Below are positions 25,844 through 50,156 of a DNA stretch of 64,000 nucleotides, piece by piece. The position numbers and the translations under genes were made by a program. Positions within the stretch are counted from its first letter, which is position 1. The number at the start of each line of letters is the position of its first letter. Source of the stretch: Escherichia phage nepoznato; the sequence record NC_052658.1; one strand, 5' to 3'. Below the pieces are notes generated by a model that had not been told where the DNA came from, made no database searches, and saw nothing but the letters and a program-made list of their open reading frames with translations.

Positions 25844-26574
25844 CTGCTCATGTAAAATCTGCCTAAACGGGGGAACTCTCAACAGAGACAATCCCGTGCT
25901 AAACGTAACAGAACTCCCAACACAGAAGAAGGGGGTACTGATATGAGAAAACAAATTCGTGATTTTGAAGGGTATGAAATTGACGAGCTTGGAAATGTTT
26001 ATTGTACCAGGTATAAGGATGAAAGAATCCTTCGCTCGTGGGAAGAAATAAACACAGGATACCAACTTGTCAGAATACGTAAAAACAAGAAAACTGTTTG
26101 CTTTCGGGTGCACAGACTTGTAGCTGAAGCGTTTTTACCCAATCCAGACAATTTACCTTATGTGAAGCATAAAGGTGACAATAGGAAAGACAACAGTGTA
26201 TACAATCTTGAGTGGGGATCTTGTCCAGACAACACGCAAGAGGGTTACGATAATAACTGTTATGCTTTCTACACAAGGTGTCACAGTGTAAAAGCTACTC
26301 ATAAGGCTACTGGTGAAGTTTTTTACTTTAAAAGTCTGAGATGTTGTGCTGACGCTTTAGGGTTGGACAGAAAAAGAATATCTGCAATCTTAAAACAAGG
26401 AGCACCAAATAATTATGATTATGAGTTCTGTTACGAAATGCCTAACGACTAGCTGTGATGAATGTAGCAGCGTAGGGTGTAAGCCTATGACACCCCAAAT
26501 GGTAGACATGCTTTAAGCATGAAGATATAGTCTGATCTGCATGGTGACATGCAGCAGCACGTAATGGTGCGGGA
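25844..26574 (+). mobile_element. Intervening element splitting nrdD, carrying a homing endonuclease gene; probable group I intron (splice sites not determined)
   Basis: Endonuclease ORF sits between the two nrdD halves. Confidence 0.5.
25943..26452 (+). CDS. HNH homing endonuclease
   Basis: YEIDELGNVY, VHRLVAEAF, KHKGDNRKDNSVYNLEW, C-terminal DNA-binding module. Confidence 0.8.
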   Translation: MRKQIRDFEGYEIDELGNVYCTRYKDERILRSWEEINTGYQLVRIRKNKKTVCFRVHRLVAEAFLPNPDNLPYVKHKGDNRKDNSVYNLEWGSCPDNTQEGYDNNCYAFYTRCHSVKATHKATGEVFYFKSLRCCADALGLDRKRISAILKQGAPNNYDYEFCYEMPND

Positions 26575-27546
26575 GTGGCCTTGCGAGCCACTTTGAACAT
26601 AATGTGTAGAAGTTTCTTGTCATACTATGCAACAGAGCAAGGAGAAAAATATGATGGACGATTCAACCTTGGAGTAGTTTCTATCAACTTGCCTCTGATT
26701 GCTGCGGAAGCGAGAAGTAAAGGAGAATCTTTCACCGATCTTCTTAATAAACATATGGAGATAGCCTACGATGCTCACATGCTACGTGTAAACCGTATCA
26801 GACATACCAAAGCATCTGAAAACCCTATTCTTTTCATGGAAGGGGCTTTAGCGCGTTTAAATGCCAATGATGAAATTGGTGTTTTGTTTGAAGGTGGTTA
26901 TGCTTCTATTAGTATTGGTTATGTAGGTCTTGCCGAAGCTTTGGAAATCCTTTATCCAGAAGAAAAAGATAAAAAGGAACTTGGTAAAAACATTCTGCAA
27001 CATATGAAAGATGTGTGTGCTGTGTTTAAAGAGCGATCTAAGCTGGCATTTAGTCTCTATGGAACTCCAGCAGAATCTTTGTGCTATAAGTTTGCAACAG
27101 CTTTAAATGAAAAATACCCAGGTTTGGTAGAAAGAGACTATCTTACTAACTCTTTTCATCAACCTGTATGGTTGGTAACAAATCCTTTTGAAAAATGGGA
27201 TTATGAAGCAGGTTTTGCACAGATTAGTAATGGTGGTAACATAAGTTATGTCGAAACACCAAACTTAAAGAATAACTTAGAAGCTTTGGAGACTTTAGTA
27301 GACTACGCTTATGAACATATTCACTATTTTGGTATTAATCAGCCCGTGGATCAATGCTTTAAGTGTGGTTTTCATGGAGAATTTAAGGCAACGGCTAAAG
27401 GGTTTGAGTGTCCTGATTGTGGCAACCATGAAGAAGAAACTATTTCTGTAGTTAGACGTGTATCAGGGTATCTTTCTGCTCCTAATTCACGGCCTTATAA
27501 CAAAGGTAAAATGCAGGAAGTTTTGCAAAGGGAGAAACATCTTTGA
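26575..27546 (+). CDS. nrdD: Anaerobic ribonucleoside-triphosphate reductase, C-terminal portion (true exon start uncertain)
   Basis: CxxC...CxxC zinc site and glycyl-radical motif RVSGYL. Confidence 0.75.
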   Translation: MALRATLNIMCRSFLSYYATEQGEKYDGRFNLGVVSINLPLIAAEARSKGESFTDLLNKHMEIAYDAHMLRVNRIRHTKASENPILFMEGALARLNANDEIGVLFEGGYASISIGYVGLAEALEILYPEEKDKKELGKNILQHMKDVCAVFKERSKLAFSLYGTPAESLCYKFATALNEKYPGLVERDYLTNSFHQPVWLVTNPFEKWDYEAGFAQISNGGNISYVETPNLKNNLEALETLVDYAYEHIHYFGINQPVDQCFKCGFHGEFKATAKGFECPDCGNHEEETISVVRRVSGYLSAPNSRPYNKGKMQEVLQREKHL

Positions 27547-33720: not shown

Positions 33721-34311
33721 ATGCATACCGAGAGAGACTTGCAACTCTTGTGGTGGGAAGTGATGCAGGAAATAAAAGAAGATTTTCCTGTTTACTACAA
33801 CATGTTACGTGAAGCAGGATATAAAGCTTGCGTTAGAAACAAAGTGAATAACTCTTTTGGTTGGTGCAATTACCGAGATAAGATTGTTGTTGTAAATTGG
33901 CACTTGCATAAGAACTCCACAAGAGATATGATCGTGGATACAATGAAGCACGAAATTGCTCACGCTATTGATGGTTGTATGGGTAAGTTTAGTAGGCATG
34001 GTGCTCATTGGCAAAAACTGGCAGCAGAATTAGGGGCTAATCCTAAAGCCACTTCCAAAGAGCCGTTGAACCACGAATATAAATATGTTCTTGTTCTGGT
34101 AGATAGGTTTGCGACAAGATGTGTTAGAGGTTATAATCGTAAACCTAATCGCATGTACCCAGGTAAGCAACCTAACATGTGGTTGAAATCAGATAAAGAA
34201 GGAACTGAAGGAAAATTATGGTTGTATAAATGGGATGATTGGGTTAAAGTAGCTAAAGAGTACGGTGTTTCACCATATATAAGAGATGCAGAAGAGGAGA
34301 ATGAAGAATGA
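33721..34311 (+). CDS. SprT-like zinc metallopeptidase domain protein
   Basis: HEIAH (HExxH) in SprT-like context. Confidence 0.55.
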   Translation: MHTERDLQLLWWEVMQEIKEDFPVYYNMLREAGYKACVRNKVNNSFGWCNYRDKIVVVNWHLHKNSTRDMIVDTMKHEIAHAIDGCMGKFSRHGAHWQKLAAELGANPKATSKEPLNHEYKYVLVLVDRFATRCVRGYNRKPNRMYPGKQPNMWLKSDKEGTEGKLWLYKWDDWVKVAKEYGVSPYIRDAEEENEE

Positions 34312-35420
34312 CAAGTCCATTTTTAAAAGCAGCTACTGGTGGTCAGAAGAAGTCTGAAATGAGTGTATTCGCTGCAACAACAGATGCAAGTAAATCTGTA
34401 TTCGCTCCAAGTGTGTTAGATGCCAGTCCTGTTTATGCACCAGCAGCACCGCAAGAAGTTCCAGTTTTGCCTGCTATGACCCGACAAGAGATCGAAGAGA
34501 TTGGGGCAGAGGCAGGAACAACCTTGCGTTCCTTGAATGCCGAGGTATTAAAACATCAACGTAGTAATCAAGGCGATCAGATGAGTGAACGACTCACAGC
34601 TTTGATTAAACAGGCAAAACAACTTGATCCAAATTCTATTAAACAAAGCAAGGGTATTACTAAACTCATTAAAAAAGTTATGGGTATGAAAGAAGACCTG
34701 TTCGGGGAGTTTGATAATGTTAATAACCGTATTGAAGAGTTGGTAAAGAACCTTCAAATGGATATTCGCAAAGAAGAAGATTCCTTGGTATATCTTGAAA
34801 AGCTACATCAAGCTATTGGACAATATGCTGCAAGTTTGAACCGAGATATGCAGCTTCTAACAGCAACCTATGAAAAAGAAGAACAAGCTTTGGCTGCTCT
34901 TCCAGAAGATGCAGTAGAACAGCGACAAGTGATCCGAGATACTTTGGATCTTCTGGAGATTCGTATTGCAGATTTAAAAGCATTGCGCCTACTGTGTGTC
35001 CAAATGGGACCGCGTGTACAAGGTATGCAAAAAGTTTCTGCAAGCTTAATGCGATCTGCGCGTAACATAGTAAATAATGTTATTCCTGCTTACTCTGCTA
35101 ACTTCTCAATGTATATCGAGAGTTTACGTCAAATGAAAGCAGCAGAGACGCAGAATAACGTTCTTGATGAATTTAACCTGGCAATTAAACTGGGTAGCGA
35201 TCTTGCCACACAGAATCAGATCGAAGCAGCAGCACTGGCTAACCGTCAAGTGTTGGATATTGAAACTCTGCGTCACGATCAGGAAAACTTGGTTAAGATG
35301 TTGGAAGAAACTAACCGCATCAATACGGAAGCCCGTGCTGCTCGTGTTGATTATATTAATGAAGTTCAATCTCTGGAAGACGGGATGGTAGCTGCTGTGA
35401 AACGAGGGCTTGGTAAATGA
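34308..35420 (+). CDS. telA: TelA-like (toxic anion resistance family) protein
   Basis: N-terminal GDQMSERLTALIKQAKQLDPN resembles the TelA/YaaN region; coiled-coil rich; Ter context. Confidence 0.55.
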   Translation: MTSPFLKAATGGQKKSEMSVFAATTDASKSVFAPSVLDASPVYAPAAPQEVPVLPAMTRQEIEEIGAEAGTTLRSLNAEVLKHQRSNQGDQMSERLTALIKQAKQLDPNSIKQSKGITKLIKKVMGMKEDLFGEFDNVNNRIEELVKNLQMDIRKEEDSLVYLEKLHQAIGQYAASLNRDMQLLTATYEKEEQALAALPEDAVEQRQVIRDTLDLLEIRIADLKALRLLCVQMGPRVQGMQKVSASLMRSARNIVNNVIPAYSANFSMYIESLRQMKAAETQNNVLDEFNLAIKLGSDLATQNQIEAAALANRQVLDIETLRHDQENLVKMLEETNRINTEARAARVDYINEVQSLEDGMVAAVKRGLGK

Positions 35421-35614
35421 GAATCCGTATCTATATAATTGATGAAGACATTGGTGTCCGTTATGATGACGAAAAACGATTCGCACCGATGGGAGGCATA
35501 TATCCCCCAAGTGTTCTAGCAGTTTGTCGTGATTGTTATATTTATGAAGGTTGTCGTAACTTCCGTAAATTCCAACTACTTGCAGATATTGACTTCAACG
35601 AGGAGGAGGAGTAA
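35417..35614 (+). CDS. Hypothetical protein (65 aa)
   Basis: ORF. Confidence 0.5.
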   Translation: MRIRIYIIDEDIGVRYDDEKRFAPMGGIYPPSVLAVCRDCYIYEGCRNFRKFQLLADIDFNEEEE

Positions 35615-35787
35615 TGAAAATATTACGAGTGAATATTGAAACTGCTTGGTGTGGATGCAATGAGGTTGTGGATATCGAAATTGAAGATGATATGTCTCAA
35701 GAGGATATAGAAGATCTTGCACACGAAACCTTTCAGGACTATTGTAATTACGGGTTTCATATTTTAGAGGAGGAAGAAGATGTTTAA
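35614..35787 (+). CDS. Hypothetical acidic small protein, about 57 aa, not in the ORF track
   Basis: TAATG overlap; RBS GAGGAGG. Confidence 0.45.
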   Translation: MKILRVNIETAWCGCNEVVDIEIEDDMSQEDIEDLAHETFQDYCNYGFHILEEEEDV

Positions 35788-35983
35788 CTACGATAACGAT
35801 CCTAATATTATCCAGTTAACCCGACAAGAACTGATCACAATCATTGAAGATGCTTTTATTGATGGTTGGAATACACAAGATAATGATTGGGGTGGACCCG
35901 AAGCTTTTCTGGAACATCATAAAACGTATGGAGACTTTTGTGAAACCACTGTAGCTCTTGATAATCTGAAGGAGGGTTTGTAA
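35780..35983 (+). CDS. Hypothetical protein (67 aa)
   Basis: RBS GAGGAGGAAG. Confidence 0.55.
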   Translation: MFNYDNDPNIIQLTRQELITIIEDAFIDGWNTQDNDWGGPEAFLEHHKTYGDFCETTVALDNLKEGL

Positions 35984-36543
35984 TGGGTTGTTTTAGTTTT
36001 TTGTGTAAGGAATCTGGAAAAGCTGCCCTTTCTACTTCTTTCGACGGATCACCTTGTTATCTCTTTCTTTTGAAGGACGGTGTTGTTATTGAAGAGATGT
36101 ATGGCAACTATGATAGTTATGGTTGTGTTTTCTCTGGAAAGGAGGATGAAAATGGCGTTCGTGAACGGTTCGAATGGGCTATGGATTGGGGTAAGGTTTG
36201 TGATTTAATGCATTCCTCAAATCCAAGGGACGGTATTGCTATGGTGCTGGAAGAGTACTTTACAGGTGAAATCCCTACAGAACAATCTGACGGAGATCCT
36301 AATCAAGGTTGGGGTGATGGTGAAGAAGATCCAGATTGTTTTTTCAGCACAGAAAAGAATAAGTTTAAACGTGTTGACAACCCTTATCACAAAGTGCATA
36401 ATACTCTCATTGAAACAGAAGATGACAAGATGGAAATTGAAGAAGATCCTCTTGTAACACTTCCTATAAGTGAGTTACAAAAGATCACTAAGGAAGCTTA
36501 CGATTTGGGCTTCAAAATTGGTAGAGGAGGTATGCGTGTTTAG
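35983..36543 (+). CDS. Hypothetical protein (186 aa), acidic
   Basis: ORF. Confidence 0.55.
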   Translation: MGCFSFLCKESGKAALSTSFDGSPCYLFLLKDGVVIEEMYGNYDSYGCVFSGKEDENGVRERFEWAMDWGKVCDLMHSSNPRDGIAMVLEEYFTGEIPTEQSDGDPNQGWGDGEEDPDCFFSTEKNKFKRVDNPYHKVHNTLIETEDDKMEIEEDPLVTLPISELQKITKEAYDLGFKIGRGGMRV

Positions 36544-36814
36544 ATTCAATATTCAAGAAGAAAAGTGTCAGGATTTACCTATTGCTTTCGAAGATCTTGG
36601 CATAGGGGCCACATTCATGTATTATGATGCCTATGAAGACGCAGGGTTGGATACATACCGTAACTTGGTGTTCATTAAAAATTCCACAAACAGTGCGATC
36701 TGTATTAATGGATCACTAGCACAACGAGGCTATACTCATTGCATCCCGCCAGATACAAATATGGTGGAAGTAGATTTAGAAGTTACCAACATTACACTTA
36801 AGAAGGAGAAATAA
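36536..36814 (+). CDS. Small protein, paralog of 37836-38105; probable GTG start
   Basis: RBS AGGAGG 5 nt before GTG; shared F-I-E...DL-G-TF-Y...E-GLD...VT-ITLK pattern. Confidence 0.45.
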   Translation: MFRFNIQEEKCQDLPIAFEDLGIGATFMYYDAYEDAGLDTYRNLVFIKNSTNSAICINGSLAQRGYTHCIPPDTNMVEVDLEVTNITLKKEK

Positions 36815-36815
36815 T

Positions 36816-37610
36816 ATGTCCGAGAAAATCAGCCTGAAAAAACGTCAAGAAAACCTTGCTTTCTCTCTGAAAAAGAATAAGAACCTGAATGAAGGTAAGA
36901 TTGTTCTTCGTGTAGCATGTGCTCTAGATATTTCTGGTAGTATGCATGGTCTATATTCTAGTGGGGTAGTGAGTGATTTTGTAGGTAAACTGCTTCCTTT
37001 TGGTATGCTGTTCGACGATAATCAACAAATTGATATGTGGGCCTTCAATACGAGTTCCCAAGAGCTTACTCCAGCAACAGCAGATGTTTACGATGACTAT
37101 GTTGGTAAATGTATGCGTAATGTTCGTATCGGAGGTGGAACAAATTACGCCCCTGTAATGGCGGATATCTACGATGAGTATTTTGGCACTGTTACTAAAT
37201 ATATTACCACTAAACAAGTGGTACAAGAGGAGGCTCCAAAGAAAGGCTTCTTTAATCGTCTGCTTGGTAAAACTGAAACAGTGTCTGTAGAGCGTGAAAA
37301 AGTTGTAGCTGTATCTGAACCAGGTGCTGACGTTACCCCTGGTGTTGTATTCTTCCAGACGGATGGTGAGAATGGTGATCCTAGTGCTGTTCGTCGTCTT
37401 ATCGAAGAGAATAAGAATAAACCTATTTATTGGTTCATGGTTGGCGTTGGTAATGAGAAGTTCGGCTTCCTGAAAGAACTGGCAAATGCTTATGATAATG
37501 TTGGTTTTATTGGCATTAAAGATTTAGACTTGACAGATTCAGAGCTTTATGACAAACTCTTATCTGAAGAGTTCGGAGAGTGGGTTGTTAAAGTAGGTGC
37601 TAAAAAATGA
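36816..37610 (+). CDS. von Willebrand factor A domain protein (TerY-like)
   Basis: MIDAS motifs DISGSM, GGTNYA, TDGENGD; N-terminal ISLKK as in TerD. Confidence 0.65.
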   Translation: MSEKISLKKRQENLAFSLKKNKNLNEGKIVLRVACALDISGSMHGLYSSGVVSDFVGKLLPFGMLFDDNQQIDMWAFNTSSQELTPATADVYDDYVGKCMRNVRIGGGTNYAPVMADIYDEYFGTVTKYITTKQVVQEEAPKKGFFNRLLGKTETVSVEREKVVAVSEPGADVTPGVVFFQTDGENGDPSAVRRLIEENKNKPIYWFMVGVGNEKFGFLKELANAYDNVGFIGIKDLDLTDSELYDKLLSEEFGEWVVKVGAKK

Positions 37611-37855
37611 TCGACGAGCTTGCCTCTCAAGTCATAGAAAATTATTGGCGCGAGAGAGAAGCTTTCATTATGCGCAGTCTCAAAGAGTATTTCATTGGGA
37701 CTGTGCGAATGGAAGATATTGTAAGTAGAGTAGAGATTCATGTATGGCCCGATTATGAAGAATGGGTTGACAAAGAAAATGAAAATGCTATAATTCTTCG
37801 TATATACAAACCGGAGATAACATTAGGAGGAAGAAGTGTTAAACTTCGAAATTGA
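37607..37855 (+). CDS. Hypothetical protein (82 aa)
   Basis: ORF. Confidence 0.5.
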   Translation: MIDELASQVIENYWREREAFIMRSLKEYFIGTVRMEDIVSRVEIHVWPDYEEWVDKENENAIILRIYKPEITLGGRSVKLRN

Positions 37856-38105
37856 TGAGCAAAAAGTAAATAAACGATGCCTTACCATTAAAGATTTGGA
37901 TGTAGGAGATACTTTCGTCTATGAAAATGCATTTGACGAAAATGGTTTAGACCTTAGTGAAATCATTGTTTATTTAAAAGTAGATGATGGGGAAAATGAT
38001 TGTTCTGCTGTAGAACTAAACCATCATGCACAATTAGTATCAATCCAAAACACATCTAAGCTTTTGGAAGTAGAATTGACTGTAACTGGTATTACACTTA
38101 AATAA
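37836..38105 (+). CDS. Small protein, paralog of 36536-36814; GTG start
   Basis: RBS AGGAGGAAG; paralogy. Confidence 0.5.
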   Translation: MLNFEIDEQKVNKRCLTIKDLDVGDTFVYENAFDENGLDLSEIIVYLKVDDGENDCSAVELNHHAQLVSIQNTSKLLEVELTVTGITLK

Positions 38106-38120
38106 TAGAGGAGACAAAAG

Positions 38121-38723
38121 ATGACTGATAAAATTTCCCTGAAAAAAGGCTCTAGCGAAAAAATTTCCCTGAAGAAAGTTGCTCCGGCTCTGAAAGAACT
38201 GCGCCTGGAATTCTCTTGGAAATCTGATTCTAAACTGGATCTGGATGTAAGTGCACTGGTTTGTCGTCACAATGCCGCTGGCAATCCTGAAATGCTGTCT
38301 GCACGTCACCTGGTTTGCTATGCTAACAAGTTTGATCCTGAACGTTCTACCTTCGCTGGTGACGATGTTCGTGATGGAACTGGCAGCATGGAGCAGATTG
38401 ATATTACTCTGGCTAAAATCTCTCCTGATGCACAAGAGATTGCCTTTGTTCTGACCATTGATGATGATACAGGTCTGAAACGTTTTGGTCATGCTTCTGA
38501 AGGTATGCTTAAAATCTTTGACTCCGAGCGCAATGTGGAAATTCTGGATTTTGACTTCCTGGCTCCTGAAGTAGCTGGCAACACAATCTGCCACGTGGCT
38601 TCCTTGGTTCGTGAAGATGGGGAATGGAAGCTGAAAGCATATGGTGTAGGTAAAGCTGGTCTGGATATTTGTGATGTGGTCATGGCCTTCGGTGGTAAAA
38701 AAGAATGGTATGAATGTCCATAA
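38121..38723 (+). CDS. terD: TerD-family protein
   Basis: Repeated KISLKK N-terminus; GEWKLKAYGVGKAGLD as in E. coli TerD GEWKFRAVGQGYAGGL. Confidence 0.85.
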   Translation: MTDKISLKKGSSEKISLKKVAPALKELRLEFSWKSDSKLDLDVSALVCRHNAAGNPEMLSARHLVCYANKFDPERSTFAGDDVRDGTGSMEQIDITLAKISPDAQEIAFVLTIDDDTGLKRFGHASEGMLKIFDSERNVEILDFDFLAPEVAGNTICHVASLVREDGEWKLKAYGVGKAGLDICDVVMAFGGKKEWYECP

Positions 38724-38822: not shown

Positions 38823-39344
38823 TTGCTGATAAAAAACTTTGTAACAGTTGCGTTACTATCCTTAACTGCTTTTACATTTACACCTGTTGTGGCGAAAGCC
38901 GAAGCTGCAAACGTAAAAACCGCTAAAGTAGTTCACAAATGTACAAAGCAATATAATGATAAAATTCTATTAGCTTGTGCAATTTACGCAGAAGGTCGCG
39001 GTCTGGGTAAAAAAGGAATGAATGCCGTTGGGAATGTGGTAATCAACAGAAGAAATGATACCTACTTCCCTAACACAGTCAGAGGAGTCTTGTTCCAGAA
39101 AGGACAATTCTCATATGCGAAAACTTTTAACGTAACAGAGAAAGATAAGTGGCAGGAAGCAAAAGCAATAGCGGAGCGTTTACTTTATCTAGAGAAACAT
39201 TTTCCTGAATTGCGGTCTGTTTTAGATGTTACTAAAGGTGCTCTATACTTCAAGAAACGGAATATAAAGACACACTGGGAACGTGATATGCGTCTTGTTT
39301 ATCGAGATAAAGTGCATGGTTTCTATCTACCAAAGGGGAGTTAA
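38823..39344 (+). CDS. Secreted SleB-like (Hydrolase_2) cell wall hydrolase; TTG start
   Basis: Signal peptide; block CAIYAEGRG...VGNVVINRR...FPNTV...VLFQKGQF. Confidence 0.65.
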   Translation: MLIKNFVTVALLSLTAFTFTPVVAKAEAANVKTAKVVHKCTKQYNDKILLACAIYAEGRGLGKKGMNAVGNVVINRRNDTYFPNTVRGVLFQKGQFSYAKTFNVTEKDKWQEAKAIAERLLYLEKHFPELRSVLDVTKGALYFKKRNIKTHWERDMRLVYRDKVHGFYLPKGS

Positions 39345-40045: not shown

Positions 40046-40609
40046 ATGATTTATTATATTACTCCCTATCTGACAGGAAATATCGGCAAGGCTATCAATG
40101 AAGCCATTGCCGTTCTTCCAGATGATAGTTGGGTGTGTTTAAGAGATACCGATACAATGTTCCTCCTACCTGATCAACCATCTATGCTTGAAGAGCTTGT
40201 TATGTCAAACCCGCCTTTTGATGTAATAGGTGCAACTTGTAACAGGTTAGGCAGTGGTTATCAACTTTTCTCTAACCAAATTAACGATGATCCAGATATT
40301 CTAAACCATATAGAATATGCTAAGATTGCAAGAGAATATCATAAAGTGAGTGTTGAAGAAGTTCCTTTCGGAACACCTCTAGCAGGTTTCTTTTTGCTTT
40401 TTAGAAAATCCTTGTGGAATGAAATTCCTTTCGAAGAAAAATCTATCCAATTCGACTTAATTTTCTCTCGCACTTTACATGAAAAAGGAAAGAGGTTAGG
40501 ATTGATGCGGGGAATGTATCTATTTCACATTTACAGATTAGGTCAAACAAATCCTCAACGGTCTATACATCATTTATTACACTGTCACGATCACAGTAAA
40601 ACTATTTAG
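40046..40609 (+). CDS. Putative nucleotide-sugar transferase (GT-A-like)
   Basis: DxD-like LRDTDTMF; weak. Confidence 0.35.
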   Translation: MIYYITPYLTGNIGKAINEAIAVLPDDSWVCLRDTDTMFLLPDQPSMLEELVMSNPPFDVIGATCNRLGSGYQLFSNQINDDPDILNHIEYAKIAREYHKVSVEEVPFGTPLAGFFLLFRKSLWNEIPFEEKSIQFDLIFSRTLHEKGKRLGLMRGMYLFHIYRLGQTNPQRSIHHLLHCHDHSKTI

Positions 40610-40617
40610 GAGAGAAA

Positions 40618-41301
40618 ATGGAAAATATTAAAATCGGAGTGGGTGTTATCACTGTAGGTGTCCGTCCACTTAAAGACTACCTTGTAACAGATCCACGTGC
40701 AGATTTTCGAGTATTCAACGATCCAGACCGTAAAGGTGTAGCTTATGCCAGGAATGAACTTATGCACCAGTTTTATGAAGAAGGTTATGATTATTGGTTT
40801 ATTTTTGACGACGATTGTTACCCAGTCATGGAAGGATGGGAAACATACTTTGTAGATCAAGCTGTTTCTGGAGGATGGGATTTCTTTGGTATGCCGGAGT
40901 ACTTCAAAGATAAAGTTGTTGGAAGCAAAGGAGAAGTTATTCTCTGGGAACTTGCAATGTGTCAATTTGCAATGTATTCTCGTGCCGTTGTTGAAAAGAT
41001 GGGTTATTTCCGCCCTTACACTCACGGTTATGGTTTTGAAGATGCCGAATGGGGACACCGTTTGAAAGCTGCTGGTTTGAATCATGGTATTCAGGCAACA
41101 CCTTGTCCACTTCGTATCATGGCTTATATCCACCCAGACGATGTTTTTGGAAACAATCCTATGCCTTTTGCTAATCTGACAAAAGAAGAGAAAGAAGCTG
41201 CTATCGAGATTAACTGGGAAGAATATAAAGCATCTTTAGAGGATATTAAAAATGGGAAAATCCGAATTTCCTATGAGGAGGCACTAGCACATGTCAAATA
41301 A
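40618..41301 (+). CDS. Family 2-like glycosyltransferase
   Basis: N-terminal Rossmann-like segment and DDD motif. Confidence 0.5.
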   Translation: MENIKIGVGVITVGVRPLKDYLVTDPRADFRVFNDPDRKGVAYARNELMHQFYEEGYDYWFIFDDDCYPVMEGWETYFVDQAVSGGWDFFGMPEYFKDKVVGSKGEVILWELAMCQFAMYSRAVVEKMGYFRPYTHGYGFEDAEWGHRLKAAGLNHGIQATPCPLRIMAYIHPDDVFGNNPMPFANLTKEEKEAAIEINWEEYKASLEDIKNGKIRISYEEALAHVK

Positions 41302-42238
41302 AAAATGGTCTAAACTAAAAATTGATGCAAAACCTCACAGCGGTTGTGACTATCATCGTATTGTTATGCCATTTAACAACAATAATATTCAACCTAAGAA
41401 AGATGTTGTTGTGTTTAACCGTATCCATTCTAAAGGTGCAGAATACGTTTTATCTTTGAAACGTCAAGGTGTTAAGATTGTTGTAGATTTAGATGATTTC
41501 TACCAACTTAATCCAGAACATTATTTAGCAAGTCTATACGAGTCAAACACTCATGCTATTGTAGCTATGGTTAAGCTTGCTGATGTGGTTATTGTGACTA
41601 CGGAATATTTGGCATATAAGATCCGTCACTTAAATAGGAATGTTGTTGTGATCCGAAATGCGCTTCCTTTTGATAGCGGACAATTTACTTTGTCAAATGA
41701 CCGTTCATCCGGTACCCCTATTGTATGGGCTGGAGGTGCTAGTCACGAACCCGATTTACGACTAGTCTCTAACACTTTTGATGATGAACTTCTTACTATT
41801 GCGGGGTATGAAGCTTCGCAGAGTATCACAGGGCAAGAGTGGATTAAAATCCGTAGAAATTTACCAAATGCCAAATATAAAGCTGCTGTAAAAGATTTAG
41901 ATAATTACATGAGTGTTTACGAAAGTCATGCTATTGCTATAGCTCCTTTGGTAGATAATGATTTTAATAATTGTAAAAGTAATCTCAAAATCCTTGAAGC
42001 TGGGGCAAAAGGTATTCCGATTGTTTGTTCTAAGGTATTACCTTATTTTAACCCTGTAGATGCTCGCGCTGTTGCTTACGCAGAGAATAAAGCTGAATGG
42101 CATTACGAAATTGTTAAGCTTCTTCGCAATCCGAACTATCGGGAAGATCGCGGCTTGTTCTTAGCGGAACATGTTCGAACACATTATAATCTGGCAGATG
42201 CAAACGAATTGCGACGCCAGGTTATTGAAAGCTTGTAG
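41291..42238 (+). CDS. GT-B-like glycosyltransferase, paralog A
   Basis: Paralogy with next gene; low-specificity fold guess. Confidence 0.4.
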   Translation: MSNKKWSKLKIDAKPHSGCDYHRIVMPFNNNNIQPKKDVVVFNRIHSKGAEYVLSLKRQGVKIVVDLDDFYQLNPEHYLASLYESNTHAIVAMVKLADVVIVTTEYLAYKIRHLNRNVVVIRNALPFDSGQFTLSNDRSSGTPIVWAGGASHEPDLRLVSNTFDDELLTIAGYEASQSITGQEWIKIRRNLPNAKYKAAVKDLDNYMSVYESHAIAIAPLVDNDFNNCKSNLKILEAGAKGIPIVCSKVLPYFNPVDARAVAYAENKAEWHYEIVKLLRNPNYREDRGLFLAEHVRTHYNLADANELRRQVIESL

Positions 42239-42245
42239 GTGAAGT

Positions 42246-43190
42246 ATGGGACAAATAATTCTTGACAATCGTAACGGAATCAATTATAGTGTCTGCGATT
42301 TCCATAGGGTAGTGCTGCCTTACTCAAGGCAGTTCTCTTCACAACCTAAACACAACGTTTTCGTTTTTAACGGAGTGCCAACAAAAGGTAAAGAGGGCTT
42401 TTTAGCCCTTAAAAACCTAGGCTTTAAAATGGTTATGGATTTGGATGACTCTTTAGTTATTCCAAAAGGACACATGTTAGAAGGTATTTTTGAATCAGGT
42501 ATTCGTGAACATTTAAAATGGTTTTTAGAGCACAGTGATCTTGTTACAACTACGACACCTGTCTTGCAAGTTGAACTTTCACAATATAATGATAATGTGC
42601 ACATAATCCCTAATGGACTTCCTTACGATGAAGGTCAATTTGTGTTGACCCGTGATCGCTACTCCAAAACTCCATTAGTCTGGGCTGGAAGTGAAACACA
42701 TAAACAAGATTTGGCTATCTTACCCGATTTTGGTAAAGATCTTACAATATGTGGTTTTCGTAGGGATTCTGAAGTTTTAAGTAGTCGTGAATGGTCTTTA
42801 ATCAGAGAAAATGTAGCACCAACTTGTGTTTATGAAGGTGTAAGACCATATGCCAACTACATGGAATCTTACGATGGTCATCAAATCAGTCTTGCACCAT
42901 TGATCGATAACGTGTTTAATAATGCAAAAAGCAATCTTAAAATTCTTGAGGCAGGTGCTAAGGGTTTACCTTTAATCTGCTCTCCTCGTGAGAATTATCA
43001 TACACAAGAGTTTAAAGATTTGTTATTCTTTGCTGAAACACCTTCCGAGTGGAAAGATATTACGGAATACTTATTAAGTGCTCCCGATGTTTGCATGGAG
43101 AAAGGATTAGCATTAGCTAAGTATGTCAGGACTCATTATCACATTGATGTGTTGAATGAGCGTCGTAGACTTTTATTTGAGGAGCTATAA
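42246..43190 (+). CDS. GT-B-like glycosyltransferase, paralog B
   Basis: Shared blocks VWAG...H..DL and NN-KSNLKILEAGAKG-P. Confidence 0.4.
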   Translation: MGQIILDNRNGINYSVCDFHRVVLPYSRQFSSQPKHNVFVFNGVPTKGKEGFLALKNLGFKMVMDLDDSLVIPKGHMLEGIFESGIREHLKWFLEHSDLVTTTTPVLQVELSQYNDNVHIIPNGLPYDEGQFVLTRDRYSKTPLVWAGSETHKQDLAILPDFGKDLTICGFRRDSEVLSSREWSLIRENVAPTCVYEGVRPYANYMESYDGHQISLAPLIDNVFNNAKSNLKILEAGAKGLPLICSPRENYHTQEFKDLLFFAETPSEWKDITEYLLSAPDVCMEKGLALAKYVRTHYHIDVLNERRRLLFEEL

Positions 43191-43468
43191 TGATTAACAC
43201 TTTTGATTTTGAATACACCACTCGTAACGGGAAAGCCTTGGTCGTGGAGGTGGATTACTATTATGAAGAACCTAATCCACTTTCTCGTGAAAGCGATTGG
43301 GATTACCACGGAGGGCTTTTAATTGACGGTATTCGTTTTTATGAAGGATCTACAGAAGTTTTTGAAAAAGATTTAAATGTAACTGTAGCAGAAATTGCTT
43401 TCCAATTTAGAAAGCACATGGAAGAACTAGAAGCAGAATATATGATGGAGACTAACGAACCATTTTAA
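43190..43468 (+). CDS. Hypothetical protein (92 aa)
   Basis: ORF. Confidence 0.55.
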   Translation: MINTFDFEYTTRNGKALVVEVDYYYEEPNPLSRESDWDYHGGLLIDGIRFYEGSTEVFEKDLNVTVAEIAFQFRKHMEELEAEYMMETNEPF

Positions 43469-43480
43469 CAGGAGAACAAA

Positions 43481-45259
43481 GTGTCGCACATTATAACTAA
43501 ATATGGATTTGATGTTGATCTTAGCAAGGAAGGACATACAGGTTGTCCGCGCTGCATGAAAAATGGCAAGGATCGCTCTCGTAATAACCTGATGGTTTAC
43601 GGATTAGATTCTAATGGAGAGCATAAAGGTGCTAAGTGCTTTGCGTGTGAATACACTATTCCTAGCGTAGAATGGTTACGAGAAAATGGTGAAGTTTTAG
43701 AAGAAGAGGAGGAGATTGTGGGTTCGGAATTTAATAAACAGATTCATCGTAAAATTGTTCAAGAAACATCAACCAACCCACGTGGTTATCGAGGCATTAA
43801 AGAAAAAGTTTCATCTTTCTATGGTGTTCGTTATGAATACCGTCAGGAAGGGGATCAGATGGTAGTAGAAAGTTGTTTATATCCAACTACCATCGGTAAA
43901 GAATTGGTTGGTTTTAAGCGTCGTATTCATCCTAAAGATTTCAGTAAACCTATTGGTCAAGTAGGTAAAGATGTAGATCTTTTTGGACAAATTCGTTTTG
44001 CAGACCGTTCTCATACTGTTGTAATTACAGGTGGTGAACACGATGCTCTGGCAGCTTATCAAATGCTATCTGAAAACTTGGACAGTAAATATGAGCTTCC
44101 AGCCGTAGTAAGTGGCACAACTGGTGAAACCAGTATGTATAAACAAGTTCAGGCACAATATCCTTTCTTTGAAAAATTTAAGAAGATTATTGTTTGCATG
44201 GATAACGACAAAGCAGGTAACGAGGCATTTGAAAATATTGTTAAGGTGCTGCCTCGTAACAAAGTCTACCGTATGCAGATGGATCTTAAGGATGCCAATC
44301 AGTATCTGGAAGAAGGTCGTGCAAAAGATTTCGTAAAAGCTTTTTGGAGTGCTCGTCTATACACCCCAGCAGGTGTTTATGCTTCTAATGTCTTGTATGA
44401 AGCTGCATTGGAATGCTTGGAATCCAAGATGATTACCTTGCCTCCTTTTATGCGTGTTGCTGCAAATATGTTGGGTGGTGGTTTAGTAGAGGAAGAGATT
44501 ACAGTCATCCTGGCAAAGACCAGTATCGGTAAAACTTTGATGGTGAACGAGATCACCAAACATATTATTGTTGCACACCCAGAACATACCCTAGGTATTC
44601 TGTCCTTGGAAGCAACTTATAAAAAGTATTCTCGTAACCTGTTATCCTCTTTCCTACACATTCCTCTACACAGGAAAACACCAGAAGAGAAATTTCAAAT
44701 CTTGGAAGAGAATAAAGAAAAAATCCTAGATTTTTACGAAAGAGAAGATGGATCACCACGTTTTTATGTGTGTGATGATCGTGGAGCAGATGTGGAGTCT
44801 ATCAAAGAAAAAGTTTTGGAGATGATCATCTATTTTGGAGTAACAATTCTTGTTATCGACCCTTATTCTGATTTGCTTTCTGGTATGGATGTTCAAGCCC
44901 AGGAAGAGTTAGCAACATGGTTGAAGCGAATCATGAAAGAGTATGCTATAACTATTATCGTCATCTCACACGTTAAGAAGTCAGCTAACGGTGGCAATGA
45001 GCACTTAACAGAGGACGATGCAATGGGTAGTAGTTTCTTGGCTAAAGGTGCTGGTATTACCTTGGCTTTGGAACGAGATAAGGCTGCTGAAGATCCTGTA
45101 GAACGTAATACAACTCATTGCTTTATCCTAAAAAACCGTGAGTTCTCGGAGACTGGTCCAGCAGGGCAGTTTTACTATGACATTAGAACTGCAACTCTTC
45201 ACGACAAAGAGCAGTATTTTAACAACCCTGCTAACTTACCTACGGATAGCAACTACTAA
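43481..45259 (+). CDS. Bifunctional DNA primase-helicase (T7 gp4-like)
   Basis: N-terminal Cys4 zinc site, TOPRIM motifs GGEHD and DNDKAG, Walker A AKTSIGKT. Confidence 0.8.
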   Translation: MSHIITKYGFDVDLSKEGHTGCPRCMKNGKDRSRNNLMVYGLDSNGEHKGAKCFACEYTIPSVEWLRENGEVLEEEEEIVGSEFNKQIHRKIVQETSTNPRGYRGIKEKVSSFYGVRYEYRQEGDQMVVESCLYPTTIGKELVGFKRRIHPKDFSKPIGQVGKDVDLFGQIRFADRSHTVVITGGEHDALAAYQMLSENLDSKYELPAVVSGTTGETSMYKQVQAQYPFFEKFKKIIVCMDNDKAGNEAFENIVKVLPRNKVYRMQMDLKDANQYLEEGRAKDFVKAFWSARLYTPAGVYASNVLYEAALECLESKMITLPPFMRVAANMLGGGLVEEEITVILAKTSIGKTLMVNEITKHIIVAHPEHTLGILSLEATYKKYSRNLLSSFLHIPLHRKTPEEKFQILEENKEKILDFYEREDGSPRFYVCDDRGADVESIKEKVLEMIIYFGVTILVIDPYSDLLSGMDVQAQEELATWLKRIMKEYAITIIVISHVKKSANGGNEHLTEDDAMGSSFLAKGAGITLALERDKAAEDPVERNTTHCFILKNREFSETGPAGQFYYDIRTATLHDKEQYFNNPANLPTDSNY

Positions 45260-45792: not shown

Positions 45793-46587
45793 TTGAGCAA
45801 GTTGAACACACTTGATCAATATTACACTAACCCCGCTTATGCGGGGTTCTTATGTGATAAGATCAAAGAAATTTTTGGAGAGGAAGCTAACTACGTAGAA
45901 CCATCTGCGGGAGAAGGGGCTTTCTCTTCTTGTTTTAAAAACATAACTTCTTTTGATATTGACCCTAAGTTTGAAGATTGTATTGAGGCAGATTTTTTAG
46001 CTCAATCTGTTGAGTCTGTTGGCAGTGTAACTGCTTTTGTCGGTAATCCTCCGTTTGGAAAAAATGCTAGTCTTGCCATTAAGTTCTTTAACCATTGTGC
46101 TGAAATGTTGGATAACGAAGGTGGTATTTGTTTTATCTTGCCTCGCACATTTCAAAAAATCTTTTTTGCACACAAACTAAATCCCCACATGCATCTTCTT
46201 TACGAAGAAGAATGTCCAAAAGGATCTTTTATTCTTCATGGAGAACCTTGGGATGTTCCTTGTGTATTCCAGATATGGATTAAACGCAACGAGAAGCGTT
46301 CTCCCGTTGTTTTAGGAGAAAATCGACTATTCGTATTAGGCAACAGTAAAGACTACGACATAGCCGTTAGGAGAGCGGGAGCAAGTGCAGGTAAAGTGTT
46401 ATCAGAAGAGGATTCTTTATCTGAAGCATCTACCTATTTTTTAAAAGCCTTGACTTCTGATCTTAAAACGCGTATCATTGAGGCTTACCCGTTACTTAAA
46501 GCTGAAGCTAGTAAAACTGCGGGAGTAAGAAGTTTAAGTTTAAAAGAACTTCAGTGGGTTCTGGAGAACATTAGAAAGGAGGAATAG
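45793..46587 (+). CDS. DNA N6-adenine (amino) methyltransferase
   Basis: AdoMet motif EPSAGEGAF; catalytic GNPPFG. Confidence 0.7.
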   Translation: MSKLNTLDQYYTNPAYAGFLCDKIKEIFGEEANYVEPSAGEGAFSSCFKNITSFDIDPKFEDCIEADFLAQSVESVGSVTAFVGNPPFGKNASLAIKFFNHCAEMLDNEGGICFILPRTFQKIFFAHKLNPHMHLLYEEECPKGSFILHGEPWDVPCVFQIWIKRNEKRSPVVLGENRLFVLGNSKDYDIAVRRAGASAGKVLSEEDSLSEASTYFLKALTSDLKTRIIEAYPLLKAEASKTAGVRSLSLKELQWVLENIRKEE

Positions 46588-49500
46588 TGAGTAAGTTTAC
46601 ATGGGATATTGAAGCAAACGGATTGTTGAATAATGATACTATTGATTATTTAGCTAGTCCTTATCGTCTCAAAGACACATTTCAAATGCACTGTATTGTC
46701 TTAGAGAACCATGAAACAGGAGAAATAGTAGCTTTCCACGATGGCCCTAAATACATTTTTGATGGTCGTCCTTATGAAGAGTCAGATGATAAATATACAT
46801 ATGTTCTTAAAGAATATGTGGCGCAAGATTACACACATTTTCAACTAAAAGATTTCCCAGATTTTATTAATCATGAAGGTTATTTTAAAGACAAGCCTGA
46901 ATATTTGGTTGAAATGGCTGTGGCACACAACGGTATCAACTATGACTGGTTGGCTACAAAACTGTTTTATGGATTAGATTACAGTGTTAAATATAACACG
47001 TGGGGTAAAAGCAAGGTAAAACTTATTGACTCCTTAATTTTGAGTAAAGTGTTAAACCCAGATCGAAAGATTGAGGGCAAATCAGGACATAGTTTGGCAG
47101 CACTTTCTCGAAAGGCAGGCGGGGATGTAAAAATAGATTTCCGTAAAGAGATTCCAGAAGAAGATCGATTTAAGACTTTTGCTGCGGATATGCTTTATTA
47201 CTGTATCTATGATAACAAAGCCAACACAAGTGTATATAATTACCTCATGGAAGAATGGGGTGATTATGATAAATGGGAAGGTCCATTTGAACTTGAACAA
47301 CGTGTAGCAGACATTATCACGCGCCAGGAACACCGTGGGTTTGCTTTTAACATGAAGCAAGCAGAAGAGAACCTTGCTTTTTTGGATGCAGAAATGGAAC
47401 GTCTTCGTTTACTCGTTGAGCCTATTTTGCCACCTAAACCAGCAACAAAAGGTTATCTTAAAGCTTTTATTCCGCCTAAATTGCAAATTAAAAAGAACCT
47501 CGAACCAACTAACCATATGATCAATTTTGCTAAAAAACATGATGGTCATTTGGAAGAGAGGGATGGCGATTGGTGGTTAGTTATGTTGGGGAAAGAGTGG
47601 AAACTGCCAGTTGCAGCAGATGAGCCTTTGTGTGATCCTAATATCCCTGCAACATTGAACGATACAACCCATATTAAAAACTGGCTTGTAGGATTAGGTT
47701 GGGTACCGTCTGAATATAAAGATAAAGACTTGACTCTTAAATCTGGCACCAAGATTAAAAAGAGTGAGGAAGAACTTCAGAAAGGTATTCGAGCTTACAT
47801 TGAGCAAACTCTATCTTCTAATTTTTGTCAGGATCGTTGTGATCATCTGGAGTGCACACCGGAAACCTTGGAAAGGAAGATTCAAGAGCGTATAGCAAAA
47901 GGTAAAGGTCGCGGTCTTAAAGTATTGACTAACCCATGTTTTACCAAAGGTCAGGAAAAAGAAATTTGTCCTAACCTGCAAGCTTTGGGTGAGAAATTTC
48001 CTTATGCTACACAGATTGTAGAATACTTAACGTATAAACACCGTAGGAACTCTATTTTAGGTGGTGGTGCCGATTGGGAAGAAGACGAAGAAGATCAAGA
48101 ATACAACAAAGGTTTCTTGGCAGCAGTTCGTGCAGATGGACGTATACCTACGCCAGCGGCTACATGCGATGCAGCAACCTCTCGTATGAAGCATAGGTCT
48201 GTAGCCAATATTCCTCGTGTTACCTCTTTGTTTGGATGGCAGATGCGTAACCTGTTTGGTGTAGAGGTTCCTAAATACTTCCAGATTGGTTATGACTTTG
48301 ATTCATTAGAGGCGAAGATTGAGTCGCATTATACGTGGAGATATGATAATCCTGATCATGCTTACTGTAATGCACTTCTGTTAGAAAAACCAAACGATGT
48401 GCATACTATGATGGCAAAACATATTACTGATATTATTGGACGTAAGTTTGAACGTGGTCCTGCTAAGAGCGTTAAATACGGTTGTGTACCTGTAGATAAT
48501 ACGGAAGTGTTAACAAGAACGGGTTGGAAGAAACGTAAAGATCTTTTTGTAGGGGATGAAGTTTTATCTTATAATACTCACACCGCTCTTTACGAATATA
48601 CCCCTATTCTTAAGCTGTGGGACTATAACGATGCAGAAGTTGTCTCTCTCGGTAACAAGTGGTTCAAAGTAGAAGTTACTAACGATCATATGTGGATTAA
48701 CGCACAGAGAAAAACTATGCGATCAGATGGTAACAATGTTAAGTATATGCAAGTGGAGCGTAGATCTACAGAGGATTTAAACTCGGAGTCAAACATAATT
48801 GCAGCAGGGCGATCTGGTGTGGTGTCTACTCTAACAGTGGAAGAAGGTCGTTTCTTAGGCTGGCTTCTTTCGGATGGCTACTATAAGTGGTCTGGCAAAG
48901 CCAGAAATAAAGTAATGGGTATTACAGTCACGGTAGATCAAGATGAGAAAAAATTCTTAGAAGAAGCACGTGAGGCTGTGGGAGATATCTTCACATTTGA
49001 CGAGTATGTATCTGGAACGATGCATTCATTACGTCCTAATAAGAGTCAGTTTAGGGAATTTTTGACTAAATGTGGCGTTGAAGTGGGTCAAAATAAGCAC
49101 GAAGTGGACTGGTCTACATTAATTGCTAATCAAGGTCAAGCTGTGTTGGAAGCATTCTTAGAGGCATTCTGGATGGCAGATGGTCATAAGCGTCCAAACG
49201 GCAGTCTTGTTATCCGTCAAAAGAAAGGTAAGATTAGCGACGCTGTTTCTTTGGCTATCAATATGACAGGTAATATTGCGTATGGTTCTGTTCAAAAAGA
49301 TGGCATGTTAACGTTGGCAATCAATAACGGACAAACTATTTCAGGACAGAGGTTGACAAAAGCTTTTTCACGAGTAACAGATGTATTCTGTATCTCAACC
49401 AAGAATGAATCTTTTGTTATGCGTCAGAATGGTTTTATCACGTTGACAGGTAACTGCACGTACGGCGCTCAAGCAGACAAGGTTGCTAAAACAATTGGTA

Positions 49501-50156
49501 GCGATAAATACACAGGGCAACTGGTGTTCGATGCTTTCTGGGAAGCTGCATTCCCACTGGCGCGTCTTAAAGAACGTTTAAACGATTTCTGGGTTAAGAC
49601 TGGTAAACAGTATGTTTTGGGTATTGACGGTCGTAAGGTTCCTACTCGTTCTGCTCACGCGATTCTTAACTCTCTGTTCCAAAGTGGTGGGGTTATCTGT
49701 GCTAAACGTGCAATGGTTATTTATGACGACATGATCGAAGAAGAAGGGCTAAGTGTTGACTTCTTTAAAGATGACTGGAAGAATAAAGACTTCGTGCAAC
49801 AAATGATTGCATATCACGATGAAGCCCAGCTTGAAGTTTCTCGTAGCCTTGTAGAATTTAAATGGTTTTCACCTGAATCATTAGGTTGGAAGAAAGTAGA
49901 CGATCCTGAAGAACAAAAGAAAATTGATAAAGAATGCCTTGCTAAAGTTGAAGAATGGAAGCATAATAAGGAAAAAGAGACAGGGCAAATTTGGGCTAAC
50001 ATTCATGAATCTCCCAAAGGTGGATGGTTTACAGCCTATAGTCGGGCAGGTGAACTTGCTGCTTTAGCTGTTACTAAGGCTGGAGAATTTTACAATCTTA
50101 ATGTTCAGCTTACTGCCGGATATGATGTGGGTAACTCCTGGGCGAGCTGCCATTAG
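46587..50156 (+). CDS. Family A DNA polymerase with 3-prime to 5-prime exonuclease domain, interrupted by an intein
   Basis: Exo I DIEANG; motif A DFDSLEAKI; motif B PAKSVKYG/CTYG split by intein; motif C YHDE. Confidence 0.85.
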   Translation: MSKFTWDIEANGLLNNDTIDYLASPYRLKDTFQMHCIVLENHETGEIVAFHDGPKYIFDGRPYEESDDKYTYVLKEYVAQDYTHFQLKDFPDFINHEGYFKDKPEYLVEMAVAHNGINYDWLATKLFYGLDYSVKYNTWGKSKVKLIDSLILSKVLNPDRKIEGKSGHSLAALSRKAGGDVKIDFRKEIPEEDRFKTFAADMLYYCIYDNKANTSVYNYLMEEWGDYDKWEGPFELEQRVADIITRQEHRGFAFNMKQAEENLAFLDAEMERLRLLVEPILPPKPATKGYLKAFIPPKLQIKKNLEPTNHMINFAKKHDGHLEERDGDWWLVMLGKEWKLPVAADEPLCDPNIPATLNDTTHIKNWLVGLGWVPSEYKDKDLTLKSGTKIKKSEEELQKGIRAYIEQTLSSNFCQDRCDHLECTPETLERKIQERIAKGKGRGLKVLTNPCFTKGQEKEICPNLQALGEKFPYATQIVEYLTYKHRRNSILGGGADWEEDEEDQEYNKGFLAAVRADGRIPTPAATCDAATSRMKHRSVANIPRVTSLFGWQMRNLFGVEVPKYFQIGYDFDSLEAKIESHYTWRYDNPDHAYCNALLLEKPNDVHTMMAKHITDIIGRKFERGPAKSVKYGCVPVDNTEVLTRTGWKKRKDLFVGDEVLSYNTHTALYEYTPILKLWDYNDAEVVSLGNKWFKVEVTNDHMWINAQRKTMRSDGNNVKYMQVERRSTEDLNSESNIIAAGRSGVVSTLTVEEGRFLGWLLSDGYYKWSGKARNKVMGITVTVDQDEKKFLEEAREAVGDIFTFDEYVSGTMHSLRPNKSQFREFLTKCGVEVGQNKHEVDWSTLIANQGQAVLEAFLEAFWMADGHKRPNGSLVIRQKKGKISDAVSLAINMTGNIAYGSVQKDGMLTLAINNGQTISGQRLTKAFSRVTDVFCISTKNESFVMRQNGFITLTGNCTYGAQADKVAKTIGSDKYTGQLVFDAFWEAAFPLARLKERLNDFWVKTGKQYVLGIDGRKVPTRSAHAILNSLFQSGGVICAKRAMVIYDDMIEEEGLSVDFFKDDWKNKDFVQQMIAYHDEAQLEVSRSLVEFKWFSPESLGWKKVDDPEEQKKIDKECLAKVEEWKHNKEKETGQIWANIHESPKGGWFTAYSRAGELAALAVTKAGEFYNLNVQLTAGYDVGNSWASCH
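48483..49454 (+). mobile_element. Intein (about 324 aa) with LAGLIDADG homing endonuclease domain, in polymerase motif B
   Basis: Starts CVPVDNTEVLT; LGWLLSDGY and LEAFWMADGH blocks; ends TLTGN before Cys; coordinates approximate. Confidence 0.7.

Follow-up and report, generated by a model that had tools for sequence, protein, structure and literature searches.

The DNA analysed here, a 64,000-nucleotide stretch of Escherichia phage nepoznato (sequence record NC_052658.1; referred to throughout as the window), is a genome segment of a Phapecoctavirus (phAPEC8-like, Stephanstirmvirinae). Positions 40046–43190 (3,145 bp) hold a cluster of four glycosyltransferase (GT) genes, which might build a glycan on the proteins of the phage particle. 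Four forward-strand open reading frames (ORFs), separated or overlapping by no more than 11 nt, fill this interval exactly:

40046..40609, + strand: GT1, 187 aa, phrog_14179, with a conserved DxD motif

40618..41301, + strand: GT2, 227 aa, GT-A type and family GT2-like, phrog_2456, with an invariant FDDD motif

41291..42238, + strand: GT3, 315 aa, GT-B type and family GT4-like, phrog_7162, its start overlapping the end of GT2 by 11 nt

42246..43190, + strand: GT4, 314 aa, a tandem paralog of GT3, phrog_7162

The region is syntenic with gp071–gp074 of phAPEC8, all four of which carry the label 'glycosyltransferase' in RefSeq, and is ∼98% identical to 63 deposited phage genomes. An ORF on the opposite strand (40606–41133) is regarded as spurious. 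Phage records labelled 'Acinetobacter' or 'Campylobacter' (e.g. OP562383.1 and MG065650.1) also show ∼98% DNA identity to the GT region, and a 'Pseudomonas' phage (OR584014.1) shows ∼80% protein identity for GT3; the host labels on such records are probably erroneous or the result of contamination.

The original prediction, made from the nucleotide sequence alone, was of four glycosyltransferases including a tandem GT-B paralog pair, and this description is borne out by PHROG matches, by predicted folds and by the 41% identity of GT3 and GT4 (E = 5e-78). Both paralogs match phrog_7162, with E values in the range ∼1e-145 to 1e-149 (5.4e-145 for GT4), and the predicted structure has a GT-B fold, in which two Rossmann-like domains enclose an inter-domain cleft, that superposes on known GT-B enzymes. 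The corresponding Pfam scores are marginal, GT3 falling below the cut-offs for PF13692 (22.7 bits; cut-off 27) and PF13524 (20.4 bits; cut-off 25) and GT4 barely reaching the latter (25.2 bits). An E-x7-E motif marks retaining enzymes of family GT4. In GT3 and GT4 only the second glutamate of this motif is found (the invariant E236), the residue eight positions upstream being a cysteine in GT3 and an alanine in GT4, which makes this an atypical branch of CgeB-like (PF13524) type. Since GT4 retains all of the family-invariant positions (26/26) it is probably active, perhaps with a donor or acceptor different from that of GT3.

Of the two upstream genes, which had both been described as GT-A-like, GT2 is predicted to have this fold, whereas GT1 is indicated only by its PHROG label and by the conservation of a DxD motif. 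GT2 matches phrog_2456 (E = 1e-78), and its predicted structure (pLDDT 89.3) consists of a single Rossmann-like nucleotide-sugar domain with the DxD motif lying within the invariant FDDD sequence. Structurally it comes closest to GlfT2, chondroitin polymerase, polypeptide GalNAc-transferase, beta4GalT7, TarS/TarP and RmlT. GT1 matches phrog_14179 (E = 8.5e-113), a family with the label glycosyltransferase, in whose alignment D34, D36 and T37 are invariant and the motif LRDxDTMF is conserved. It matches neither Pfam nor, in single-sequence and family-profile searches, the PDB; a search of 24 members of its family against Pfam produced only scattered sub-threshold matches to GT-A-type families, and an hhalign comparison of the GT1 and GT2 families was negative (probability 0.2%). 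Single-sequence PDB searches with GT2 and GT3 and a profile search with the GT3 family likewise gave nothing useful. It is plausible that GT1 is a glycosyltransferase; it is the first gene of a conserved GT1–GT2–GT3 cassette, and its homologues hold the same position in three prophages (L013, L015 and L003). A hydropathy scan identified no transmembrane segment in GT1–GT4 and indicates that all four are soluble, the maximal 19-residue Kyte–Doolittle hydropathy being at most 1.65, at a strand that is buried within a confidently folded domain.

In bacterial genomes the homologues of GT3 are found within prophages and are preceded directly, on the 5′ side, by a GT2 homologue with 38–43% identity. 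The full order GT1–GT2–GT3 is found in an HK97-like prophage of Serratia (L015) and in a prophage of Pseudomonas alliivorans (L013); a prophage of Enterobacter (L003) carries an NAD-dependent epimerase/dehydratase gene between GT1 and GT2, and the GT2–GT3 pair occurs in a prophage of P. silvicola (L002) and in metagenomic phages (L009–L011). At least 576 IMG/VR contigs encode relatives of GT3, and profile searches of the 79 IMG/VR loci that were retrieved place GT2, often together with GT1, next to the GT3 relative in most of the closer ones. Related enzymes are also present in Streptomyces and Arthrobacter phages. Within the Stephanstirmvirinae the cluster varies: GT1 may be accompanied by one GT-B gene, by GT2 and one GT-B gene, by two GT-B genes, or by an epimerase and one GT-B gene. 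Relatives thus have between two and four glycosyltransferases, in some cases alongside an epimerase, as would be expected if the glycan is variable.

Outside the Stephanstirmvirinae the position of the cassette is overwhelmingly the head and packaging module. It lies directly 3′ of the major capsid gene in L013, L035/L046, L040 and L047 (in the order TerL, portal, protease, capsid, cassette in all of these except L013), 3′ of the portal gene in L044 and 5′ of a head–tail adaptor or connector gene in L030 and L036. In a further group it is found directly 5′ of HNH, TerS and TerL genes (L002, L003, L015/L029, L032/L033 and L038), and in the Streptomyces phage Zuko a UDP-glucose dehydrogenase gene and a glycosyltransferase gene stand immediately before the terminase. 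TerL is located 0.7–4.5 kb downstream in 25 of 47 more distant aquatic loci, and among 97 flanking proteins that were scanned the top annotated families are the major head protein, the large terminase subunit and the head maturation protease. In L013 the reading frames of the cassette overlap those of the adjacent head genes, suggesting late co-expression with structural genes rather than an autonomous lysogenic-conversion moron. Two chromosomal homologues of GT3 (42–45% identity), from Trinickia symbiotica (L012, 2742–9026) and Burkholderia dolosa (L014, 3025–8440), belong to a conserved operon that also encodes an invasin/intimin-like inverse autotransporter and a 555–571-residue protein with no family match. 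This operon may be an adhesin-glycosylation system, and the location of GT3 homologues beside adhesin genes is a hint that the family can act on protein acceptors.

The closest parallel to this arrangement is found in mycobacteriophage Che8, the gp108–gp110 of which are cited as responsible for glycosylation of the capsid and tail tube (Freeman et al., 2023, as cited in PMC12363180 and PMC11256854). Like GT1–GT2–GT3, the Che8 set, which is grouped here with the virion-glycosylation enzymes of Corndog and Myrna, is a run of three soluble phage glycosyltransferases; in Che8 they are located just 5′ of an HNH gene at the right end of the genome and hence next to the terminase in the concatemer, which is the position of GT1–GT2–GT3 in the Serratia and Enterobacter prophages. 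In a tblastn search of 50,697 phage records the only relatives of GT2 outside its own subfamily were ∼360 Mycobacterium phage records (E of ∼1e-8), and the records listed have Che8-like genome sizes with the glycosyltransferase near the right genome end. Direct comparison of GT2 with the N-terminal part of Che8 gp108 gives a weak match (23% identity over 147 residues, E = 6e-4), and GT1, GT3 and GT4 do not match gp109 or gp110. The likeness is therefore one of architecture and position with a single weak homology and does not amount to membership of the Che8 family. The present system also differs from Che8 in its Gram-negative host, in the location of the cluster in a replication module and in its dedicated dTDP-rhamnose pathway.

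This pathway is encoded in the complete phAPEC8 genome by four consecutive genes for RmlB, RmlA, RmlC and RmlD (gp166–gp169; Pfam E values of 1e-66 to 1e-80), which sit among nucleotide-metabolism genes; the 64-kb window does not include them. Among Phapecoctavirus, Justusliebigvirus (phi92-like) and related Klebsiella phages the distribution of RmlC nearly coincides with that of the GT cluster. Given the phage-encoded RmlABCD enzymes and this shared distribution, at least one of the glycosyltransferases probably uses dTDP-L-rhamnose as its donor.

We favour, at a probability of roughly 45%, the interpretation that the cluster builds a rhamnose-fed glycan on virion proteins, a reading based on gene neighbourhood and on analogy. 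The original prediction had named DNA or host glycans as possible substrates and did not consider this third option, to which the gene-neighbourhood data point. In such a mechanism the soluble cytoplasmic glycosyltransferases would jointly assemble a short glycan on a macromolecule that is not DNA, most likely on the capsid, decoration or tail proteins of the virion, either ahead of assembly or while it proceeds. The core of the cluster is the portable set of GT1 (a DxD protein), GT2 (GT-A) and GT3 (GT-B), and duplication of the GT-B gene in the Stephanstirmvirinae of E. coli has produced GT4, which may add a further sugar or create a variant linkage. The donor would be dTDP-L-rhamnose made by the phage RmlABCD enzymes encoded outside the window, and by analogy with mycobacteriophages the glycan could shield or stabilize the particle.

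The setting of the cluster in the window is of a different kind:

38823–39344: endolysin gene (Pfam Hydrolase_2, SleB-like), co-directional and upstream of the GT cluster

43190–43468: 92-aa acidic ORF downstream of GT4 (phrog_4240, function unknown)

43481–45259: primase/helicase gene, downstream and co-directional

45793–46587: methyltransferase-like gene, downstream and co-directional

46587–50156: DNA polymerase gene, downstream and co-directional

Three small ORFs lie between the endolysin gene and GT1. The cluster had been placed directly 5′ of the replication genes and this holds, with the primase/helicase and the DNA polymerase encoded downstream. The phrog_4240 ORF trails the last GT gene in every member of the Stephanstirmvirinae examined, including the Klebsiella phages, and is not part of the prophage cassettes. 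A promoter and terminator scan of the interval 35.5–46 kb recovered nothing beyond the promoter already annotated behind the primase gene and a candidate 5′ of the endolysin gene; the number of sites was not above the shuffled expectation, and the scan is uninformative on the timing of expression.

Several observations weigh against a virion acceptor. The cluster in this phage is not in the structural module, but stands among replication genes and next to the endolysin gene, which is also where the DNA glucosyltransferases of T4 are found. Occurrence of the cassette across unrelated capsid lineages would be simpler to explain if the acceptor were universal (DNA, a lipid carrier or a host glycan, for example), and the gap between lysis and terminase genes in temperate phages is a classic moron site. 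The homology between GT2 and Che8 gp108 is not only weak but of a kind that GT2-type GT-A domains share in general, the fold searches cannot tell one type of acceptor from another, and the literature reached contains no glycoprotein data for phages of this group.

Modification of DNA, in which the enzymes would rhamnosylate or otherwise glycosylate a hydroxylated base of the phage genome as a defence against restriction, following the T4 paradigm, is a rival that finds some support in this setting, with the cluster among replication genes and the rml genes among those of nucleotide metabolism. It was put forward by Olsen et al. (2020), who noted the Rml pathway and proposed rhamnosylation of hydroxymethylated nucleotides (PMC7552041). 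The AGT and BGT enzymes of T4 share the GT-B fold, and the location of the cassette just 5′ of packaging genes in other phages would suit modification immediately before packaging. The well understood phage DNA glycosylations begin, however, with a pyrimidine hydroxylated by a ThyA-family enzyme or with 5-methylcytosine oxidized by a TET enzyme (PMC13326640). As originally reported, the 64-kb window contains no thymidylate-synthase-like (ThyA-family) hydroxymethylase or hydroxylase, and the sole thymidylate synthase of phAPEC8 (gp156) is a ThyX enzyme (PF02511, motif THRxxSRxxxSSR). An attempt to read the diagnostic ThyA residues N177, L143 and D169 (PMC13326640) in this protein was abandoned, since alignment of a ThyX protein with E. 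coli ThyA or T4 gp42 is meaningless. The phAPEC8 ThyX record cites similarity to proteins of rV5 and PVP-SE1; no rV5-type (Vequintavirus) record is found among the GT3 matches. The full annotation of phAPEC8, in which many genes are still hypothetical, lists no TET/JBP protein, hydroxymethylase or dedicated dNMP kinase, and the temperate prophage carriers have no base-modifying gene within the flanks examined. The glycosyltransferases themselves are not significantly similar in sequence to T4 AGT or BGT, and the comparison of the paralogs with known DNA glycosyltransferases that had been proposed shows no special structural affinity to these two. GT2 and its prophage homologues do give recurrent sub-threshold matches to TAGT (PF20691) and phrog_842, with TAGT scores of 19.3–20.9 bits against a cut-off of 27.5. 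The link to TAGT was rejected, as the matches are short (∼40 residues; residues 32–68 only in GT2, at 19.3 bits), lie below the cut-off and are generic to the DxD region, while the distant relatives of GT2 are generic Glycos_transf_2 and Glyco_transf_7C proteins.

The behaviour of related phages and the composition of the window also argue against a modified genome, although both kinds of evidence are indirect for the present phage. Bas61–Bas63 of the BASEL collection (EmilieFrey and relatives) carry the orthologous four-gene cluster at the same place together with Rml genes, yet the phi92-like BASEL phages are described as 'exceptionally susceptible' to restriction–modification systems 'despite a putative dTDP glycosylation machinery' (PMC8594841). 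Bas61 and Bas62 are moreover sensitive to Druantia III and ARMADA II, which is most probably due, according to the authors who reported it, to recognition of unmodified phage DNA. Six-base palindromes in the window are depleted relative to non-palindromes (mean log2 observed/expected of −1.07 versus −0.03; Mann–Whitney p = 1.4e-9), and 11 of the 48 palindromes for which at least four copies were expected, but only 10 of 3692 non-palindromes, are strongly depleted, i.e. at or below 25% of expectation. In a 50-kb T4 control the palindrome mean is −0.30 and strong depletion affects one of 43. The sites GGATCC (12 expected), CTGCAG (11.9), CCATGG (9) and CGATCG (9.1) do not occur in the window, nor do GCATGC, GGCGCC, TCCGGA and CCGCGG; the window does contain sites for HindIII, EcoRV, NdeI and DraI. 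Among four-base sites GTAC, GGCC, CCGG and CTAG are present at 0.27, 0.39, 0.41 and 0.47 of expectation, respectively; GATC, at 0.99, is not avoided, consistent with its being protected by methylation of the Dam type. This strong counter-selection of palindromes containing G and C, unlike in T4, is the signature of DNA that is exposed to restriction. The literature searched reports no nucleoside analysis, restriction digest or virion glycoproteomics for phages of this group. Of the two substrates originally proposed, DNA has thus become less likely in view of the ThyX enzyme, the restriction susceptibility and the site avoidance; it is probably not the acceptor, although a sparse or unconventional modification would be compatible with these data, and we consider this the least probable of the readings discussed here.

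The other proposed substrate, a host glycan, fits poorly with soluble enzymes encoded in head operons and is unlikely, but has more to recommend it than DNA. On the cytoplasmic side of the inner membrane, sugars such as rhamnose would be added to lipopolysaccharide (LPS) core, O-unit, enterobacterial common antigen (ECA) or capsule intermediates and would mask receptors against superinfection or against loss of progeny on cell debris. The receptors of the group are indeed ECA and the LPS outer core (PMC8594841 and PMC12753057), and modification of surface polysaccharides was suggested in the description of ZCKP1 (PMC6141743). Among the best structural matches to GT3 and GT2 are enzymes of lipid-linked glycan and teichoic acid synthesis (PglA/PglH-type enzymes, WaaG, WaaB, PimA, TarS/TarP and RmlT), the cassette adjoins lysis genes both in the window and in a number of prophages, and a universal host acceptor would account for its portability. 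However, the four proteins are soluble and are not accompanied by a flippase or a GtrA/B/C-like partner. Serotype conversion, where known in phages, is a temperate trait expressed from the prophage, whereas the prophage copies of this cassette are located in late head operons with overlapping frames; related enzymes are found in phages of Streptomyces and Arthrobacter, Gram-positive hosts that have no LPS, and a strictly lytic phage would have little time in which to remodel the outer surface of its host. Somewhat less likely again is a host protein or small molecule that is modified for host takeover or anti-defence, for instance a rhamnosylated translation factor or defence-signalling molecule, or a free or secreted glycoconjugate. 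The genes do lie in an early/middle block with many host-takeover genes, the adhesin-adjacent chromosomal homologues suggest protein substrates within the family, and the structural neighbours include GT-B enzymes that act on small molecules (BshA, MshA, SenB and tetrahydrobiopterin glucosyltransferase). A run of three or four glycosyltransferases with its own donor pathway points instead to an oligosaccharide on an abundant acceptor, and recurrent placement in head and packaging modules would not be expected of host-takeover genes; no match to an anti-defence family turned up, although no search was aimed at PADLOC or anti-defence families.

The cluster can also be compared with other characterized systems. 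The T4 AGT and BGT enzymes and the arabinosyl-5hoC systems of RB69 and DLP3 are likewise phage GT-B enzymes encoded among early or replication genes, and the latter also have a phage-encoded sugar-nucleotide supply (PMC13326640). TAGT and the beta-glucosyl-HMC alpha-glucosyltransferase of T2/T6 (phrog_842) are, like GT2, small GT-A enzymes with a DxD motif, but the TET/JBP dioxygenase or C5-methyltransferase partner of TAGT systems is not annotated here. GtrABC-type systems are also phage-encoded and alter a receptor glycan; the Gtr proteins, however, are embedded in the membrane, act in the periplasm with a bactoprenol-linked sugar and are encoded beside int/att of temperate phages, whereas the proteins considered here are soluble, and their genes belong to a lytic myovirus or to late head operons. 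Giant viruses (A064R of PBCV-1 and the fibril glycans of mimivirus) follow the same logic as that proposed for the virion reading, with viral glycosyltransferases and a viral rhamnose pathway glycosylating virion proteins in the cytoplasm. Enzymes of PBCV-1, STIV (A197) and mimivirus appear among the structural neighbours (ranks 25, 28 and 30, and rank 25 in another list); the similarity of the giant-virus machineries is at the level of the fold only, their hosts are eukaryotes or archaea, and the enzymes are not orthologous.

Some further features of the window were observed. The N-terminus of the endolysin (38823–39344) is hydrophobic and signal-like (MLIKNFVTVALLSLTAFTFTPVVAKA), which suggests an endolysin of the secreted or signal-anchor-release type encoded in the middle of the replication region. 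Just 5′ of this gene and of the GT cluster lies a tellurite-resistance-like gene set (34308–38723):

34308–35420: TelA, confirmed by Pfam (E = 3e-33)

36816–37610: candidate neighbour in the tellurite set, with a homologue annotated as 'sporulation protein' in a Klebsiella relative

38121–38723: candidate neighbour in the tellurite set

The DNA polymerase gene contains a 975-bp in-frame insertion (48483–49457) that is not present in phAPEC8, so that the protein has 1189 residues compared with 865; the insertion shows a weak LAGLIDADG_3 match and resembles an intein that carries a homing-endonuclease domain and interrupts the replicative polymerase. The anaerobic ribonucleotide reductase gene nrdD is also split relative to phAPEC8, by a 778-bp insertion (25835–26612) with one ORF:

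25943–26452: 169-aa ORF with HNH_3 and I-HmuI-like NUMOD domains

This insertion probably represents either a group I intron or a homing endonuclease gene of the free-standing kind.

The annotation of the four genes, the idea of DNA rhamnosylation and the restriction sensitivity of these phages were already known. To these the present analysis adds the recognition, from comparison of gene orders, of a conserved and mobile GT1–GT2–GT3 cassette associated with head and packaging genes across many proteobacterial phages, its parallel with the Che8 cassette and sequence-level evidence against DNA hypermodification, which bears on the published speculation that the DNA of these phages is rhamnosylated. 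We tentatively suggest that this might be a widespread mobile virion-glycosylation cassette of Gram-negative phages, with the capsid or tail of the Stephanstirmvirinae of E. coli, a group used in phage therapy, bearing a phage-made rhamnose glycan; if so, it would be the first outside the actinobacteriophages, and virion glycosylation would then be known from phages of Gram-negative hosts as well. Phages of Phapecoctavirus and Justusliebigvirus infect a broad range of hosts and are in development against multidrug-resistant E. coli, and a self-made glycan coat would affect their recognition by antibodies, their clearance and their stability, as reported for mycobacteriophages. Even if the acceptor proves to be a host glycan or another molecule, the cluster represents a widespread, uncharacterized phage module that is tractable in E. 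coli K-12.

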